A stretch of DNA of 64,000 nucleotides from a virus: IMG/VR virus record IMGVR_UViG_3300046517_000866, positions 1 to 64,000 of that record, one strand, 5' to 3'. The translations under genes and the position numbers were made by a program. Below, piece after piece: positions 1-6,036 of this stretch. The notes under the pieces were generated by a model that was given only the letters and a program-made list of their open reading frames with translations, did not search any database and had not been told where the DNA came from. The stretch's first letter is position 1. Each line of letters starts with the position of its first letter.

Positions 1-66
1 CGGAACTGCAGACGTAACGTACATCACTTTTCCGTCTTTCATAGACCCACATTTTTCTAAGGTCAT
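1..66 (-). CDS. Early hypothetical protein, N-terminal part only (MTLEKCGSMKDGKVMYVTSAVP..., runs off window)
   Basis: ATG at 66 preceded by GGAGAGAGACAA RBS, downstream of hammerhead HH1; frame open to window edge. Confidence 0.7.
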   Translation of the reverse strand, partial: MTLEKCGSMKDGKVMYVTSAVP

Positions 67-95
67 TTGTCTCTCTCCATTGATAGTTTTGGACT

Positions 96-152
96 GACCA
101 TCATCAGACACAGCATAACTGTGTGACACGGGAGTAATCCCGTGTTTCGGTC
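96..152 (-). ncRNA. Type II hammerhead ribozyme HH1
   Basis: Minus strand GACC-GAAAC-ACGGGA-UUAC-UCCCGU-GUC^-ACACAG-UUAUG-CUGUGU-CUGAUGA-U-GGUC; all core nucleotides and three stems present; predicted cut 3' of C at 125. Confidence 0.93.
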
Positions 153-325
153 TATTCGTCCTTGTCCATTTCGGACGCGACTTCTGTCAACTTGCGCCGC
201 AAACCTCGCAAGTGATCACGATAACGAATGCCAGGTTCAGTCCGAGGTTTTGCCGGTTGCTTGTCAAGCGCAACGTCAACCAAACTGAGAAGTGTGTTAA
301 CATCATAAAAGTCCAGGTCCATCAT
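152..325 (-). CDS. Early hypothetical protein (57 aa, MMDLDFYD...)
   Basis: Start reassigned to the ATG after the GGAGAGAGAGACA RBS; TAG stop overlaps stem II of HH1. Confidence 0.75.
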   Translation of the reverse strand: MMDLDFYDVNTLLSLVDVALDKQPAKPRTEPGIRYRDHLRGLRRKLTEVASEMDKDE

Positions 326-349
326 TGTCTCTCTCTCCATTTATGTTCT

Positions 350-406
350 GACCATCATCAGACACAGCATAACTGTGTGACACGGGAGTAATCCCGTGTT
401 TCGGTC
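350..406 (-). ncRNA. Type II hammerhead ribozyme HH2 (identical to HH1)
   Basis: 57-nt exact copy of HH1; cut 3' of C at 379; downstream CAUAA can pair with loop I UUAUG. Confidence 0.93.
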
Positions 407-410
407 TTTT

Positions 411-665
411 TTAATCAACTCGCCAAACCTCTAGCATTTCATCGATCGTGGCGTACTCGATCTTTTCGAGCGGCGCTATAGCATCGCTGAGCTTGCCAGA
501 TGGCAGGCCGAAGATATACCCAAGGTACACAGTCTTGCGATGCTTGTCAGCGATTACAAACCCGCAGTAATCATCACGATGAAAATCTCCGGACTTGCGC
601 TTTAAGGGGCACAAAGGCCAACGGGGCCATTCGATTGGTGAATTGATAAACTCTTTATCTGTCAT
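411..665 (-). CDS. Early hypothetical protein (84 aa)
   Basis: ORF track; AAGGAGAGAGACAA RBS; bounded by HH3 and HH2. Confidence 0.8.
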   Translation of the reverse strand: MTDKEFINSPIEWPRWPLCPLKRKSGDFHRDDYCGFVIADKHRKTVYLGYIFGLPSGKLSDAIAPLEKIEYATIDEMLEVWRVD

Positions 666-685
666 TTGTCTCTCTCCTTACTTCT

Positions 686-738
686 GACCATCATCAGACA
701 CAGCATAACTGTGTGACGGCCCGTAGGCCGTTTCGGTC
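686..738 (-). ncRNA. Type II hammerhead ribozyme HH3
   Basis: GACC-GAAAC-GGCC-UACG-GGCC-GUC^-ACACAG-UUAUG-CUGUGU-CUGAUGA-U-GGUC; stem III replaced but still paired; cut at 715. Confidence 0.93.
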
Positions 739-742
739 TTTG

Positions 743-1501
743 TTATGATGCAATTTGCCTTGTCGTGTTGCTGGTCAACTGACCATCCAACCCGATTTCA
801 CCCCCTGCCCGATATCCATCACGGACGCCAGCAGCATGGTCCGTCTTGATCGGACGCTTTTTGGTAGTCAATGCTTTGCCAGTCGCGGCGATGACAGCTT
901 CGGCTTTCACCTTTGCCTGCTCATACATGTCAAGACACATGAGTGCCTTGCCAGTCGTTTCTGACACGACCTTGCCTGCTTTTGCGTCCGCAATCCGTTG
1001 AAAGATACGCGACACCAAACGGCCCGCACACATGTTGCGGAAGGACGTCTGGTATGAGGTGCGCTCTTTCGCGGGGTATGCCAACGATCCATCGCGGGCG
1101 AGCCGATCAACAGCGGACATGAGGTATTGAAACATCATCTTCGCCACCTCGACATTGTGCGGGGCGCCGACAAACGTGTGAACGTCATGACGGATTGTCC
1201 CGTACTTCGTGTTGACCTTGATGTACTTCGACGTATAGAAGTACTTGCAGAAATAGAGCGCTCCCGTTGCATTCGCCAACTGGCGGCGCCACGGGCGGGA
1301 CTCCGTCTCGCCAACTTCAATCATGCCGAACTCGTCATCCGTTTGCACGGACTCGACTTCGCTCATTGACAAATTGTACTCGGTTAAGATCGCTTGCGCC
1401 TTCGCTGCAGCCGAAGCTGCCTCGTTTTCGTTTGGCGAAGCAGAAAGGGCCAACAACTTGCGGACCCGTTCAATGACCTTCTCCCGATCGATTGCGTTCA
1501 T
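743..1501 (-). CDS. DUF2786-domain protein (252 aa)
   Basis: N-terminus IERVRKLLALSASPNENEAASAAAKAQAILTEYNL fits DUF2786; start moved to MNAIDREK after the RBS. Confidence 0.8.
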   Translation of the reverse strand: MNAIDREKVIERVRKLLALSASPNENEAASAAAKAQAILTEYNLSMSEVESVQTDDEFGMIEVGETESRPWRRQLANATGALYFCKYFYTSKYIKVNTKYGTIRHDVHTFVGAPHNVEVAKMMFQYLMSAVDRLARDGSLAYPAKERTSYQTSFRNMCAGRLVSRIFQRIADAKAGKVVSETTGKALMCLDMYEQAKVKAEAVIAATGKALTTKKRPIKTDHAAGVRDGYRAGGEIGLDGQLTSNTTRQIAS

Positions 1502-1528
1502 TGTCTCTCTCCATTGATAGTTTGGACT

Positions 1529-1585
1529 GACCATCATCAGACACAGCATAACTGTGTGACACGGGAGTAATCCCGTGTTTCGGTC
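1529..1585 (-). ncRNA. Type II hammerhead ribozyme HH4 (identical to HH1/HH2)
   Basis: 57-nt exact copy; flank to RBS also nearly identical to that of HH1; cut at 1558. Confidence 0.93.
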
Positions 1586-1589
1586 TTTT

Positions 1590-1877
1590 TCACTTAATTG
1601 GGTGATCCATGATCCCAGCAGCATCGATGTTTAATGTGCCATCTGGCAACAATCCGGGCGGCGTATCATCGACAGGCTTTACAACCTCACGTGCAACACG
1701 GTACGTAGTCGTCGCCTTAAAGCCCAATCCGATGGACTCAAAAGGGACAACAGTATAGTGATACAATTTTGCCTTGTCGCCACGAGCAAACTCGCCCGGA
1801 GCCATTGCATTCTCAAAAGCAGCACGTTTCCGCGCGCCTTCGAACGTCTTGTAAACAGTCTTCAAAAGCTTGGCCAT
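1590..1877 (-). CDS. Early hypothetical protein (95 aa) with C-terminal VDDTPPGLLPDGTLNI motif
   Basis: Start MAKLLKTV after RBS; motif shared with the ART at 62879-63559. Confidence 0.78.
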   Translation of the reverse strand: MAKLLKTVYKTFEGARKRAAFENAMAPGEFARGDKAKLYHYTVVPFESIGLGFKATTTYRVAREVVKPVDDTPPGLLPDGTLNIDAAGIMDHPIK

Positions 1878-1895
1878 TGTCTCTCTCCATTGGCT

Positions 1896-1961
1896 TGCCA
1901 TCATCAGTGTGAGGGGAAGCCACCCCGTCACAGACTCCCCGAATGTCGGGGAGTTTCGGCA
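1896..1961 (-). ncRNA. Type II hammerhead ribozyme HH5
   Basis: UGCC-GAAAC-UCCCCGA-CAU-UCGGGGA-GUC^-UGUGA(C)GGGG-UGGCUU-CCCCUCACA-CUGAUGA-U-GGCA; all stems differ from HH1 yet pair; loop I UGGCU pairs with downstream AGCCA; cut at 1933. Confidence 0.93.
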
Positions 1962-2333
1962 TTATCCTGGAACATTGCAAAGCACACCCAAAAGGAAGGC
2001 AACGCCTAACCGTTCGATCACCGTCTTCATGACCTCAGGAACGGGCGGGGCCGTTCCATGCTTGTCATCGCCGGAAAACGGTACCAGCATTGACACGCCA
2101 TAGAGGGGCTTAAACTCCCCGTCAGTAACATGCGGGAAGCCTTCAAAATACCGACCGGCCTCGATTGTGCGGCCATGTGCCGACACATAAACTCCCACTT
2201 CGGGATTAAGCCGATCGGGCAGAAACGCAAGCAAGTCCCGGTGCGTGCCATCATGTATTGGATCGATAGTCCACGTTCCGCGACGCGAGCGCATATAGTT
2301 TGCCCATGCGTCATACTCTTCTTTCGCGTTCAT
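1962..2333 (-). CDS. Early hypothetical protein (123 aa)
   Basis: ORF track; AGGAGAGAGACAA RBS; TAA abuts HH5. Confidence 0.8.
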   Translation of the reverse strand: MNAKEEYDAWANYMRSRRGTWTIDPIHDGTHRDLLAFLPDRLNPEVGVYVSAHGRTIEAGRYFEGFPHVTDGEFKPLYGVSMLVPFSGDDKHGTAPPVPEVMKTVIERLGVAFLLGVLCNVPG

Positions 2334-2344
2334 TTGTCTCTCTC

Positions 2345-2749
2345 CTATTTCTGACCATCATCAGGCATTGCATAACCTCGGACCCAAATGCAGAATGCGC
2401 CATCTTGAAAGAACACGTCCCAACCGTCGCCGATTGTCCAAAACCTCCCGTCAATTGCGGCAGGAATTTCCTCGAACTCGGCAAAGGTGTCAGTAAGGAC
2501 TGACATGATTTTTTCAAGATCAACTTGATACACGGGACCGCCGATCAGACAGACTTTGAAGGTCCACATGACCATATCGTCCGTCTTGTATGTGTCAGGC
2601 ACAACTTCTGAGTTGTAATCGACAATCGCGTCTCCGCCCGGATACTTTATCCGGGGTGCATTGATCTTTTTGATCACTGGGTCCAAAACGTTCCGAACCT
2701 TGGGACCAAAGGTATTGTAGAGTTCTAGTCCCAATTCGTTATTGTTCAT
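2345..2749 (-). CDS. Early hypothetical protein (134 aa); C-terminus YAMPDDGQK encoded by the ribozyme remnant
   Basis: Start MNNNELGL after RBS. Confidence 0.75.
   Translation of the reverse strand: MNNNELGLELYNTFGPKVRNVLDPVIKKINAPRIKYPGGDAIVDYNSEVVPDTYKTDDMVMWTFKVCLIGGPVYQVDLEKIMSVLTDTFAEFEEIPAAIDGRFWTIGDGWDVFFQDGAFCIWVRGYAMPDDGQK
2353..2376 (-). pseudogene. Truncated hammerhead remnant HH6 (3' half only)
   Basis: GUUAUGCAAUGC-CUGAUGA-U-GGUC identical to the 3' half of HH8; GAAAC, stem III and GUC absent; lies inside the end of the upstream ORF. Confidence 0.8.
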
Positions 2750-2767
2750 TGTCTCTCTCCATTGGCT

Positions 2768-2828
2768 TGTCATCATCAGTGCATCGATAGCCAATCGATA
2801 CAGACTCCCGTTGCCGGGAGTTTCGACA
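2768..2828 (-). ncRNA. Type II hammerhead ribozyme HH7
   Basis: UGUC-GAAAC-UCCCG-GCAA-CGGGA-GUC^-UGUAUCGAU-UGGCU-AUCGAUGCA-CUGAUGA-U-GACA-AGCCA; GNRA loop III; pseudoknot UGGCU/AGCCA; cut at 2803. Confidence 0.93.
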
Positions 2829-2830
2829 TT

Positions 2831-3007
2831 TTAGTGAGTCCAAGAATGGAACCACCGATTGATCGTCGAAGTTTTGAGTCCAGCGCGACGGGCATACCGT
2901 CTCGCGACAACATCACCAGACGAAAGGAAAAGCTTGAAGGTGTTGCTCTTTCGCGTACCGTCACGGAAGCAATGGCCGGTAAGCATCGCAGTTCTGATCG
3001 TATTCAT
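2831..3007 (-). CDS. Small basic HTH-like protein (58 aa), paralog of 3337-3549
   Basis: ARRYARRAGLKTSTINRWFHSW; start MNTIRTAM after RBS. Confidence 0.75.
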   Translation of the reverse strand: MNTIRTAMLTGHCFRDGTRKSNTFKLFLSSGDVVARRYARRAGLKTSTINRWFHSWTH

Positions 3008-3030
3008 TGTCTCTCTCCACATGGTTAACT

Positions 3031-3083
3031 GACCATCATCAGGCATTGCATAACAATGCGACGGCCCTTAGGCCGTTTCGGTC
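3031..3083 (-). ncRNA. Type II hammerhead ribozyme HH8
   Basis: GACC-GAAAC-GGCC-UAAG-GGCC-GUC^-GCAUUG-UUAUG-CAAUGC-CUGAUGA-U-GGUC; stem I covaries relative to HH3; cut at 3060. Confidence 0.93.
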
Positions 3084-3084
3084 T

Positions 3085-3249
3085 TTAGATTTTAATGTCA
3101 TCCATGTTTACGCACTTGGCGATAAAAAGATCGACCTTGAATGCCGGACTCAACGACTCCAATTTGTGAGCCATCGCGACGACAACATTGCGAGGGGCCT
3201 TTGTATTGCGAAGTACTTCCGCAATCACTTCATAATCTTTCCGTTTCAT
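3085..3249 (-). CDS. Early hypothetical protein, 54 aa, absent from ORF track (MKRKDYEVIAEVLRNTKAPRNVVVAMAHKLESLSPAFKVDLFIAKCVNMDDIKI)
   Basis: Manual translation; GGAGAGAGACA RBS; exactly fills the gap between HH9 and HH8. Confidence 0.8.
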   Translation of the reverse strand: MKRKDYEVIAEVLRNTKAPRNVVVAMAHKLESLSPAFKVDLFIAKCVNMDDIKI

Positions 3250-3270
3250 TGTCTCTCTCCATTGTTTGGC

Positions 3271-3335
3271 TTGTCATCATCAGCGACAGGGGAGCCACCC
3301 CGATCGGACTCCCCTCGAAAGGGGAGTTTCGACAA
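3271..3335 (-). ncRNA. Type II hammerhead ribozyme HH9
   Basis: UUGUC-GAAAC-UCCCCU-UUCG-AGGGGA-GUC^-CGAUCGGGG-UGGCU-CCCCUGUCG-CUGAUGA-U-GACAAGCCA; cut at 3307. Confidence 0.92.
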
Positions 3336-3336
3336 T

Positions 3337-3549
3337 TTAGCTTGACCAGGAATGGAACCAACGATCGATTGTGCTGGTCTTGATCCCGGCTCGCCGCGCA
3401 TATGCGCGAGCCATTTCGGGATCGCGCACAAAGCGGGAATAAGTCTTGTTTTTGCGGCTACCTGCCCGGAACATGTCCAACTCCTCTACAACAGGAGCCC
3501 GCTTTGCGCTGGCAATAGTCGTTTTGGTTGTGTTAGTGGCCATAGTCAT
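3337..3549 (-). CDS. Small basic HTH-like protein, first gene of the ribozyme array
   Basis: ARAYARRAGIKTSTIDRWFHSW; AAGGAGAGAGUC RBS. Confidence 0.75.
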   Translation of the reverse strand: MTMATNTTKTTIASAKRAPVVEELDMFRAGSRKNKTYSRFVRDPEMARAYARRAGIKTSTIDRWFHSWSS

Positions 3550-3570
3550 GACTCTCTCCTTAATGAGCTA

Positions 3571-3644
3571 TCATCATCGGACAGCAAGTGCTCAATCTAT
3601 GCTGTGACATGCGAGCCCTTTTTGACGGGGCCCACATGTTTCGA
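3571..3644 (-). ncRNA. Variant type II hammerhead ribozyme HH10 (core CCGAUGA, 2-bp stem II)
   Basis: UC-GAAAC-AUGUGGGCCC-loop-GGGCUCGCAU-GUC^-ACAGCA-UAGAUUGAGCACU-UGCUGU-CCGAUGA-U-GA; loop I UGAGC pairs with downstream GCUCA; cut at 3606. Confidence 0.8.
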
Positions 3645-4319
3645 ATTTTTGGAGAGAGAGAGACACCCAACGGCTTCGCCTGAAATGTGCGGCCCCTGTG
3701 CCAGTTAACATGATCGAAACAGCGCATTAGTCCGACAAGAGAGCACCTTTTGGACAGGCGCCAATCGAATGGTATTCCGTTCAAAGGGAATACCGCTTTG
3801 CCCTAGGATCAATCATGGACAAGCTATGTGAGTCCACAAATCAGTTTGCCTATGCCGGTCATCGCAGACAATCAAGGCGGGGTACTGATTTTTGATTTTC
3901 CATATCGATGCAAGAGCATCGCGGCAACAATGTGCATTGTGGAAAGCCAAAAATCAGATTGCCCGATCGAAGACAACATGTCCCGATCGGAGGGGCGTCC
4001 TGATTTTTATCGCGGATTATTGACATCCGCGCGGCGGATTGGGCGTGATGCTTGGCGCATTGGCGCGCGTCCCATCATAGGCGGCAAGCAATTTTATCTT
4101 GGATATCGCACGGGAGCCCTTGTTTCGGCATCGCTGGCGGTCCTTGCTCGGTCCTTGATCAGATTGGGAGGGGAAAATCGGCCCTTTTTGAGGGGGCTCG
4201 TGCTGTCCGCATGTCCTTGTCTGATGTTTAGTAATGTAAAGCATGCGGCTCCCAAATGCAATACCTTGGACTGCTAAATTTATCACAGGACTGTGATCGT
4301 CACGGCCCACAAAGGGCCC

Positions 4320-4400
4320 CCACGGAGCCGATTTTCGTAGGGGCCCTAGGATGGCACAGGGCGCAGCCAAAAACGGCTCCCTGAGGGCCTATCGCAGGGC
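4320..4400. repeat. Diverged copy of dispersed quasi-palindromic intergenic element
   Basis: Arms GGAGCCG/CGGCTCC around a GGGCCCTA...CAGGGCGC core; ends in TATCGCAGG (reverse complement of the CCTGCGATA at 33389 and 60914). Confidence 0.45.
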
Positions 4401-4482
4401 GCGGCACCTTTCGCCAGGAAGAAAGGAGCAGCGATCCGCGGCGCTGGAATGTTGACAAATCCGATCAACATTATCCAATTTG

Positions 4483-6036
4483 TCAACAATCTGCCTTTGC
4501 CTTCCCCTCCACAATCGCGTCGAAATACGATTGCCCCTCTGCATGGAACTCCCGAATGCGCTCGTCAACCGTTCCTCGAACCATGAAGTCATACAAGAAC
4601 ACACGCCTATGCTTTGACTCCTGCCGTTCGAACCGCCTCTCCATCTGCTTTCGCAGGATGACAGCAACGGGACTTTCGTAAACAAGCCCATACTGCGCGG
4701 ACTGCAAATTCAATCCATAGAAGCCTGCTTTCGCCAGGACAAACACGCGACATGCTGGATCATGATCGAACTCGTGCAACAGCGCCGCTGCGTCCTTTGT
4801 CTTCGAGTGCAAGCGAACGTGCTTAATCCCCAACTCCGTCAAGCCGCGCGAGATCACAGCGCCGGAGTAAATGAAATCATGAAACACAAGCACCTTACGA
4901 TCGGGGCGGATCGACTCCAATGTGGACAACAGCAACTCCAACTTTGGATTTGTAGGGAACTCAAACTGTGCCCGTGTTCCTTCCTCGTCATCATAGTAAC
5001 CCACAAACCCGGATGATATCTGCCGCATCCGAAGGAAGGCATTTTTCATTTCCAAATAATTGCCTTGCGCTGCAATGACGGAGTCTCGCGCTTTTTTGTA
5101 ATACAACTCCGCCGTCTGAGGTAGCGACACAAACTTCTCAATCTGAACCAACGCTGGAAGATCAGACTTATCCGCTGCATACCTCAGCGATCGGTTTGCA
5201 ACCGTCCGGTGTAATAATCCCAATTTCTTTGGGTCGATGGCATAATTGAACCCACCCCAAAAGTTGTCACTGGCTTTGAAAAATGCCGCCCGAAAGAGAC
5301 CAAGGGTTGGGCCCAAGGTCTCCCCTTTGTCAACGAGATACATCTGGGCCCACAAGTCGATCGGATCACGCCCAAAGGGCGTTCCTGTCAAGGCAAATAC
5401 TGTAGCAACACTTTTAGAGATTTGTCGGCATATCCTATATGGTAACTTACGATGATTTTTTACAACTGTGGACTCGTCCATCACAAGCCCATCAATACAA
5501 AGCATCAACCGCTTGATCTGTTTTGCATTGGGTTTCAATCGAGGCTTCTTTTTGCCCTTCTTCGGCGCGACAAAGGTACAGACCATCCTAATGAGGCCAG
5601 CGAATGTCTCCACAACTATCAAGGCGTCTGTCGCCTCGAGCTGCTTCCATTTGTCGGCACTGGACCCCCTCAATATGCAGTATCTGGTACCGGGAGAATG
5701 CTTCTTGATCTCACGCGCCCACTCATACTTCAAAATCTTGTTCGGCACCAAGACCAAAACACGCTTGTTCTTTTTCAGCTTTGCAAAGTAACGTATCAAT
5801 GCGATCGACAGCAACGTTTTTCCGGTTCCAGTATCATTCTGGAAATAGAAACGCCCTGTCTTGGCACCTGCCAAAAAGCAGACACGCTGATGTTGTCTGA
5901 GGGGCTTCCATATCGGGGGCTTGACGGGCAACTGATCCTTCAACTCGATCAGTTGCTCCCAAGTCAGTTTTTTATACCGGCGATAATCCTCGAGTTGCCG
6001 GTCCAAAAACGCCTTGATTGCACGTTTGAGTATCAA
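4483..6036 (-). CDS. SNF2-family (SF2) helicase
   Basis: DTGTGKT, MDEST, LTGTP, LRMRQISSGF, YGLNLQ motifs. Confidence 0.9.
   Translation of the reverse strand: MILKRAIKAFLDRQLEDYRRYKKLTWEQLIELKDQLPVKPPIWKPLRQHQRVCFLAGAKTGRFYFQNDTGTGKTLLSIALIRYFAKLKKNKRVLVLVPNKILKYEWAREIKKHSPGTRYCILRGSSADKWKQLEATDALIVVETFAGLIRMVCTFVAPKKGKKKPRLKPNAKQIKRLMLCIDGLVMDESTVVKNHRKLPYRICRQISKSVATVFALTGTPFGRDPIDLWAQMYLVDKGETLGPTLGLFRAAFFKASDNFWGGFNYAIDPKKLGLLHRTVANRSLRYAADKSDLPALVQIEKFVSLPQTAELYYKKARDSVIAAQGNYLEMKNAFLRMRQISSGFVGYYDDEEGTRAQFEFPTNPKLELLLSTLESIRPDRKVLVFHDFIYSGAVISRGLTELGIKHVRLHSKTKDAAALLHEFDHDPACRVFVLAKAGFYGLNLQSAQYGLVYESPVAVILRKQMERRFERQESKHRRVFLYDFMVRGTVDERIREFHAEGQSYFDAIVEGKAKADC

Follow-up and report, generated by a model that had tools for sequence, protein, structure and literature searches.

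An array of predicted type II hammerhead ribozymes in the gaps between the small genes of a soil phage

Introduction

At its left end, the linear IMG/VR virus contig IMGVR_UViG_3300046517_000866 (75.6 kb; completeness ~73% by CheckV) carries ten small minus-strand open reading frames (ORFs) that fill the last 3.6 kb (1..3549) of a region in which the genes run leftward from ~9795 down to position 1. A preliminary description of the first 64 kb of this contig (64,000 nucleotides, herein referred to as the window) placed a self-cleaving hammerhead ribozyme in the gaps between these ORFs and proposed that a polycistronic transcript cuts itself there into single-gene messages. The locus therefore raises two questions: whether the intergenic elements are hammerheads at all, and, if they are, whether cleavage of RNA or some other property of the repeated sequence accounts for their presence at nearly every gene junction. 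Here, we address both questions using motif scans, covariance models, structure prediction and comparison with related contigs from other viruses and metagenomes.

Identification of the intergenic elements

In a motif scan of the 64 kb, CUGAUGA preceded by GAAAC turned up eight times, each time on the minus strand and between 95 and 3335; the rest of the window has no such pair. Together with one divergent member and one half copy, the elements are as follows (C17, predicted cleavage position; RF02276, the Rfam model Hammerhead_II; R1, the covariance model described below; MFE, minimum free energy structure):

3569-3647, minus strand: leader hammerhead-like copy; C17 at 3606; core CCGAUGA (U4C), core-adjacent stem II of 2 bp, stem III of 12 bp; R1 21.5 bits (E 4e-3, whole window)
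3271-3335, minus strand: type II hammerhead, pseudoknot subclass; C17 at 3307; loop I UGGCU, 3' tail AGCCA; RF02276 39.3 bits (3264-3334), R1 27.7 bits
3030-3084, minus strand: type II hammerhead, short subclass; C17 at 3060; stem II GACC/GGUC, loop I UUAUG; R1 75.8 bits, RF02276 26.1 bits (3023-3083); MFE is the hammerhead junction
2767-2829, minus strand: type II hammerhead, pseudoknot subclass; C17 at 2803; stem III loop GCAA; RF02276 34.1 bits (2761-2828), R1 33.8 bits; MFE is the hammerhead junction
2353-2376, minus strand: half copy; 3' half of stem I, CUGAUGA-U and GGUCA, without GAAAC, stem III or cleavage site; R1 10.2 bits (2352-2384)
1895-1962, minus strand: type II hammerhead, pseudoknot subclass; C17 at 1933; RF02276 40.4 bits (1889-1961), R1 36.1 bits; MFE is the hammerhead junction
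1528-1586, minus strand: type II hammerhead, short subclass; C17 at 1558; identical to 95-153 and 349-407; R1 68.1 bits; MFE is the hammerhead junction
685-739, minus strand: type II hammerhead, short subclass; C17 at 715; stem III loop UACG; R1 75.0 bits, RF02276 27.4 bits (678-738)
349-407, minus strand: type II hammerhead, short subclass (identical repeat); C17 at 379; R1 68.1 bits
95-153, minus strand: type II hammerhead, short subclass (identical repeat); C17 at 125; stem II shares 1 nt with the upstream stop codon; R1 68.1 bits

The nine loci, the half copy and their common strand are those given in the preliminary description, which had also expected type II matches to the Rfam models at all nine. 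The latter expectation was borne out in part: RF02276 (curated gathering score, 37 bits) detects five of the nine loci, but only two of these score above the gathering score and three below, and four (the leader copy and the identical copies at 95-153, 349-407 and 1528-1586) are not listed. We built a second covariance model, R1, on 19 copies, three of them from the window and 16 from 13 unrelated viral contigs that had been located with a pattern fixing the core and stem II only. R1 recovers all nine loci (E 1e-16 to 4e-3) plus the half copy; it has no further hits in the window, nor in the 11.6 kb of the contig outside it.

Structure prediction points the same way. The hammerhead three-way junction is the unconstrained MFE in seven of the nine copies, and for the copy at 3272-3334 the hammerhead fold lies only 0.5 kcal/mol above it; in the folds and in the RF02276 alignments stem II is open and stems I and III are closed by loops, which is the type II topology. 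Among the window copies, which comprise seven distinct sequences, every helix cell pairs (107/107) and 13 of the 16 base pairs show changes on both sides, with pairing in slid-register controls of only 24-44%. The same holds across 19 copies from 14 phage contigs, where 300 of 300 helix cells pair, changes on both sides are seen in 11 of 16 pairs, and controls in which the partner is shifted by 1-3 columns pair at 29-45%. Eight copies retain the core, namely CUGAUGA, GAA, the A15.1-U16.1 pair and GUC, with all 13 conserved core nucleotides intact. The pairs adjoining the core, where the screen of Perreault et al. (PMC3088659) allows no mispair, are likewise intact in eight copies, and the ninth (3569-3647) has a C at position 4, the single variant previously noted. 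All nine window copies also carry one extra U between A9 and the 3' strand of stem II, a nucleotide that is variably present in the hammerheads of other phages; in the hammerhead of chrysanthemum chlorotic mottle viroid (CChMVd), a U after A9 is a documented active variant that raises the cleavage rate 3-4 fold (PMC3705267).

Judged by their sequence and predicted fold, the intergenic elements are genuine type II hammerheads, and the alignments support selection on their structure, the putative catalytic core being kept while the stems covary. The view that the stems had been exchanged for unrelated sequences is correct insofar as pairing is restored by compensation, but the stems form a mosaic of few types: a single 57-mer recurs unchanged at 95-153, 349-407 and 1528-1586, the tails of two of these copies also being almost the same, and the independent good copies amount to six distinct sequences rather than nine. 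Likewise, stem III was said often to be capped by UNCG or GNRA loops, which is true of three of the six distinct loops (UACG, UUCG and GCAA) and not of the other three.

Two structural subclasses

The window copies fall into two subclasses. Three (1895-1962, 2767-2829 and 3271-3335) have a longer stem I whose loop, UGGCU, is complementary to AGCCA directly 3' of stem II; a pseudoknot of this kind, which in the definition of the type joins loop I to the 3' tail by 4 bp or more, is required for fast cleavage of type II hammerheads (Perreault et al., PMC3088659). The pairing is conserved beyond the window. In eight related soil contigs (described below), a strict Watson-Crick table of one pseudoknot pair gives 10 U-A, 7 C-G and 0 mismatches in 17 copies (Fisher p = 5e-5), and three further complementary combinations of loop and tail occur in these relatives, 18 of whose 20 elements are hammerhead-shaped on inspection.

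The five short copies have stem II GACC/GGUC, a stem I of 6-7 bp and the 5-nt loop UUAUG, and no consistent pseudoknot was seen in them. This short subclass is widespread among viral contigs, in which it has a conserved AGACC...GGUCA frame. In the alignment of short type II hammerheads, loop I is always 5 nt and U-N-A-N-G-like, and stem II hardly ever departs from AGACC/GGUCA, even though the phages are unrelated. Such constancy of loop I and stem II hints at a tertiary contact that may take the place of the pseudoknot.

The two subclasses differ in how well they are recognized by the existing model. RF02276 shares with the window elements the core, three helices, the open stem II and the pseudoknot, and scores the three pseudoknot copies at 34-40 bits, whereas the five short copies reach at most 27 bits (in round numbers) or are not listed. 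Short type II hammerheads from 14 other viral loci (L007-L020) behave in the same manner: none reaches the RF02276 gathering score, and R1 scores them at 57-75 bits. The Rfam model is thus tuned to the pseudoknot subclass and leaves short copies unannotated at its curated threshold, which means that arrays such as this one are under-annotated in phage genomes. One of these loci, the phage contig L007, has a cluster of mixed ribozyme classes, in which a hammerhead is accompanied on its own strand by two Twister-P5 ribozymes, all three within 3.6 kb (1197-1255, 2354-2410 and 4726-4785).

The hammerhead and ribosome-binding site module

From 5' to 3' on the coding strand, each junction reads stop codon, stem II, GAAAC, stem III, GUC, stem I, CUGAUGA-U, the second strand of stem II, ribosome-binding site (RBS) and AUG, the order previously reported; the stop codon lies -1 to 4 nt from stem II, and the 53-66-nt element is followed by a short tail, GGAGAGAGAC and, 1-2 nt on, the AUG. 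A ribozyme had been placed in front of every gene. The full motif is present at nine of ten consecutive gene junctions, but one of the nine is doubtful and the remaining junction has the half copy, which sits within the 3' end of the ORF at 2345-2749. The density, nine motifs and a half copy in 3.6 kb, is high. Ten module RBSs accompany the elements, each 1-2 nt ahead of its AUG:

69-78, 668-677, 1503-1512, 1879-1888, 2336-2345, 2751-2760, 3009-3018, 3251-3260 and 3550-3559, minus strand: RBS GGAGAGAGNC
327-338, minus strand: RBS variant GGAGAGAGAGAC, read from the sequence

All nine matches to GGAGAGAGNC in the 64 kb lie on the minus strand within the array, a number to be compared with a chance expectation of 0.38. 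Ribozyme and RBS together are therefore one repeated module of ~80 nt, distinct from the phage's other translation signals.

Proposed self-processing and the alternatives to it

We hypothesize that the array processes its own transcript. The leftward cluster of small genes would be transcribed as one or a few long RNAs, in which the eight intact type II hammerheads in the intergenic gaps would cut 3' of GUC. The upstream message would then run on for ~30 nt past its stop codon and finish with the stem III hairpin and a C bearing a 2',3'-cyclic phosphate, and the downstream message would start with a 5'-hydroxyl (5'-OH) directly at the base of the stem I hairpin, with the strong RBS of the module 15-30 nt beyond this new 5' end; the cleaved type II halves would be joined only by the 4-bp stem II. 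Recomputing the predicted C17 sites and the resulting units (299, 247, 257, 870, 375, 843, 336 and 254 nt) gave figures identical to the earlier ones, and the predicted geometry, in which units would begin at the stem I hairpin and end just after the stem III hairpin, also stands. The likely outcome would be single-gene mRNAs whose stability and translation are independent of their neighbours, and the proposal that the array genes are early genes is plausible. Because structurally conserved motifs occupy these positions and are fused to the RBS, we consider self-processing of a polycistronic RNA by these hammerheads likely. The transcript, its cleavage in vivo and its benefit are what we infer from these observations, and our confidence in any particular benefit is much lower than in self-processing itself.

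Several observations weigh against this hypothesis. Three of the copies are identical, so that part of the apparent conservation reflects recent duplication. The leader copy has the U4C core CCGAUGA, a change that lowers activity considerably in vitro (PMC3088659), and its hammerhead fold, with a stem II of only 2 bp, lies 2.4 kcal/mol above the MFE. Its surroundings (3540-3680) fold at -49.4 kcal/mol (z = -3.0), and in both the MFE and the centroid of this region a CUCUCUCC tract 5' of the leader copy (3651-3658, minus strand) pairs with the first RBS (3552-3559), forming an outer helix that encloses the leader copy; the leader-copy core is also able to pair with the UCAUUA that follows it. 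On these models, cleavage by the leader copy is doubtful, and it may be inactive, slow or regulated. Together with the half-copy junction, this weak leader copy implies that cleavage is not needed at every gene. No RNA runs containing window positions 1-4500 were listed, and a scan for sigma-70 promoters gave no site upstream of the array, performing at background (8 found versus 6.3 expected). Finally, whether processed mRNAs would be stabilized or destabilized depends on the RNases of whichever host the phage infects. RNase J1 of Bacillus degrades the glmS ribozyme product that starts with a 5'-OH, and protection of a processed message is hence not guaranteed.

In one alternative, which we judge unlikely, cleavage would mark messages for decay or lower their expression, possibly regulated through a slow leader copy, as with the glmS ribozyme. 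The weakening U4C of the leader copy and the pairing of its RBS with the upstream tract would suit such a role. The role of bacterial hammerheads has been described as open, and processing could alter transcript stability or translation efficiency (PMC6765202). However, both of the predicted new ends would lie directly at stable hairpins, which usually protect against exonucleases, and a strong RBS after every copy fits expression rather than silencing.

A second alternative takes the hammerhead-RBS modules to act mainly as DNA linkers for the swap, gain or loss of cassettes between related phages, with RNA cleavage secondary. The phage DNA is present in rhizosphere and soil metagenomes, and assembly paths from three to four runs diverge exactly at the modules, with loose ends at 689, 2330 and 3084. 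The hammerhead at 685-739 is followed by a different tail, RBS and gene in DNA contigs of all four runs that contain the phage; a different ORF follows the RBS and the AUG at 2333 in three runs; and at the half-copy junction three runs show a variant in which the hammerhead is complete and the gene upstream is a different one, the joint 2356->3039 restoring a full copy. The half copy at a fused junction and the three identical 57-mers, two with near-identical tails, are consistent with the same process. So are the eight related contigs from soil and rhizosphere metagenomes, which carry 2-4 hammerheads per 1-2 kb and the same RBS as the window: at the DNA level they resemble the window only in module segments of 35-70 nt (77-92% identity), the DUF2786 gene is the only gene common to them and the window (45% amino-acid identity), and among themselves they have almost only modules in common. 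An exact 33-mer covering stem I and the core had no match in metagenome contigs.

Despite this, we regard a linker role with secondary cleavage as quite improbable. Recombination alone leaves the invariant core, the freely covarying stems and the covarying pseudoknot unexplained; in mosaic phages, any conserved functional sequence is a passive point of recombination; and de Bruijn contigs break at repeats, so that some of the forks are possibly ambiguities of the graph. The forks and shared modules fit conserved modules with exchangeable cassettes, and do not prove a dedicated shuffling role. Self-processing and exchange may nevertheless be combined, and we tentatively suggest, as a possibility short of a likelihood, that the hammerhead-RBS unit is both a portable expression adaptor and a cassette junction, small accessory genes being exchanged, acquired and lost in natural populations of this soil phage group by recombination inside the ~80-nt modules. 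If so, each incoming gene would automatically gain its own processed 5' end and RBS, and the module would serve as RNA and as DNA alike, with an integron-like outcome achieved without an integrase. The occurrence of common modules with unrelated intervening genes in soil phages bears on how the accessory-gene regions of phages are assembled. The module pattern also matched a Spongiibacteraceae metagenome-assembled genome (L146, the sole match in the genome collection), considered as a host clue, and the loci L136, L138, L140 and L141; R1 finds no hammerhead in any of these five, and we treat the matches as chance.

It is very improbable that the elements are non-catalytic structured spacers, that is, terminators or attenuators, RNase III or RNase E sites, translational insulators, or decayed hammerhead relics carried as repeats. 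On the plus strand, the complement of stem III with its T-run (from sense AAAAAGACC) scores as an intrinsic terminator at 379-400, 725-739, 1558-1579 and 3070-3084, and such antisense-strand terminators could halt convergent antisense transcription; moreover, one copy is degenerate and one is a half. Yet eight copies keep every one of the 13 conserved core nucleotides while their stems change by compensation, and a hairpin role would not keep GAAAC, GUC, CUGAUGA or a covarying pseudoknot. That neighbouring hammerheads cleave and ligate to yield circular or spliced single-gene RNAs is extremely improbable: each unit would have compatible 5'-OH and 2',3'-cyclic-phosphate ends, and Perreault et al. 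raised the possibility, but they sought such products and found none (PMC3088659), and the cleaved type II halves would be held by a 4-bp stem II only. Self-processing by cleavage thus remains the hypothesis that we prefer.

The array genes and their surroundings

The genes between the modules, hereafter the cassette genes, are as follows (ORF list, with start codons adjusted by reading the sequence):

3337-3549, minus strand: 70 aa
3085-3249, minus strand: 54 aa
2831-3007, minus strand: 58 aa
2345-2749, minus strand: 134 aa
1962-2333, minus strand: 123 aa
1590-1877, minus strand: 95 aa
743-1501, minus strand: 252 aa
411-665, minus strand: 84 aa
152-325, minus strand: 57 aa
1-66, minus strand: cut by the contig end

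Among these ten, Pfam, PHROGs and NCBIfam assign a family only to the 252-aa protein (743-1501), which has DUF2786 and DUF7168 (Pfam) and belongs to phrog_421 (PHROGs); for two other cassette proteins, matches in a protein atlas were limited to unnamed clusters with scores at the level of chance. The products of 2831-3007 and 3337-3549 are paralogues (59% identity across 44 residues) that have a C-terminal ...KTSTI(D/N)RWFHSW motif in common. No close relative of the DUF2786 gene turned up in viral contigs, cultured phages yielded no blastn match to the array, and the closest cultured-phage relatives are remote, the helicase encoded upstream being 33% identical to that of an Edwardsiella phage and the DUF2786 protein 27-29% identical to those of two phages.

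Upstream of the array, an untranslated gap of ~820 nt separates it from a helicase gene, and two features of this region stand out:

3665-4482, minus strand: untranslated gap bounded by the SNF2 helicase gene (4483-6036) and the array
3834-4008: four AAAAATCAG(A/T)TT-containing motifs of 15-17 nt within the gap, in alternating orientation and at ~114-bp spacing
4313-4347 and 4429-4446, minus strand: terminator-like hairpins that immediately follow the SNF2 helicase gene

The gap probably holds the promoter and operators of the array. Its AAAAATCAG(A/T)TT motifs resemble the operators or iterons to which a regulator would bind, and, taken together with the hairpins after the helicase gene, they suggest that the array is a separate, regulated transcription unit. 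The stem III loop region of the leader copy, CCCCGUCAAAAAGGGC (3615-3630, minus strand), recurs in the gap as CCCCCUCAAAAAGGGC at 4172-4200 (minus strand), ~560 nt upstream. At the other end, contigs of two runs reach beyond position 1, by at least 494 nt in X9 and 75 nt in X7; the phage genome continues past the left end of the contig, and possibly the array with it.

Comparison with known systems

The preliminary description took a gene-by-gene ribozyme array to be undescribed, and in this it was mistaken. Hammerheads flanking single genes in prophages were described in 2011 by Perreault et al. in PLoS Comput Biol (PMC3088659), who reported that clustered prophage hammerheads cleave in vitro and in Escherichia coli and that native polycistronic fragments of ~2 kb from Clostridium scindens, Azorhizobium caulinodans and Agrobacterium tumefaciens are cleaved completely. 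Those arrays resemble the one in the window in having several same-strand hammerheads in the gaps between small, variable phage genes, in their type II topology with a pseudoknot between loop I and the 3' tail, and in the role proposed for them, the conversion of a long phage RNA to single-gene mRNAs. They differ in that the window array is denser (nine motifs and a half copy in 3.6 kb, as opposed to tested arrangements of about three), mixes two subclasses, has all its copies fused to one module-specific RBS and is known here from sequence alone. Type II hammerheads near phage-like genes of Desulfovibrio vulgaris cleave in vivo, with 5'-OH and 2',3'-cyclic phosphate ends detected by cyPhyRNA-seq (PMC8782182); these motifs similarly adjoin hypothetical and phage-like genes, but at three dispersed loci of a cultured bacterium and without forming an array.

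Comparable arrays, which the preliminary description had proposed to look for in related phage genomes, are also present in other, unrelated viral contigs. Among the matches listed are a 6.1-kb viral contig with seven same-strand copies (L058), another with four copies ~350 nt apart (L049) and several with three, all with the same grammar of stop codon, hammerhead, RBS and start codon, which the soil relatives share too. At least nine copies, spread across 13 kb, occur in the complete 77-kb record from which L025 comes. The window array is dense but no record, the arrangement is already known, and the array leaves knowledge of this kind of system unchanged. Its value lies elsewhere. The function of bacterial and phage hammerheads is still described as elusive fifteen years after they were discovered (2019 review, PMC6765202), and the array offers a compact 3.6-kb test system, with eight good predicted ribozymes of two subclasses, a natural weak variant, a natural deletion and a common RBS. 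In such a system, the half-life and translation of mRNAs that are cleaved could be compared cleanly with those of mRNAs that are not.

Two further systems, one engineered and one natural, are comparable. RiboJ, an engineered hammerhead insulator derived from the satellite RNA of tobacco ringspot virus (sTRSV), is alike in that a cut between a variable upstream context and the RBS yields defined 5' ends. In the early mRNA of phage T7, a polycistronic RNA is likewise converted to hairpin-ended units; the difference is that T7 relies on a host enzyme, RNase III, for this processing, whereas the RNA encoded by the window would act by itself.

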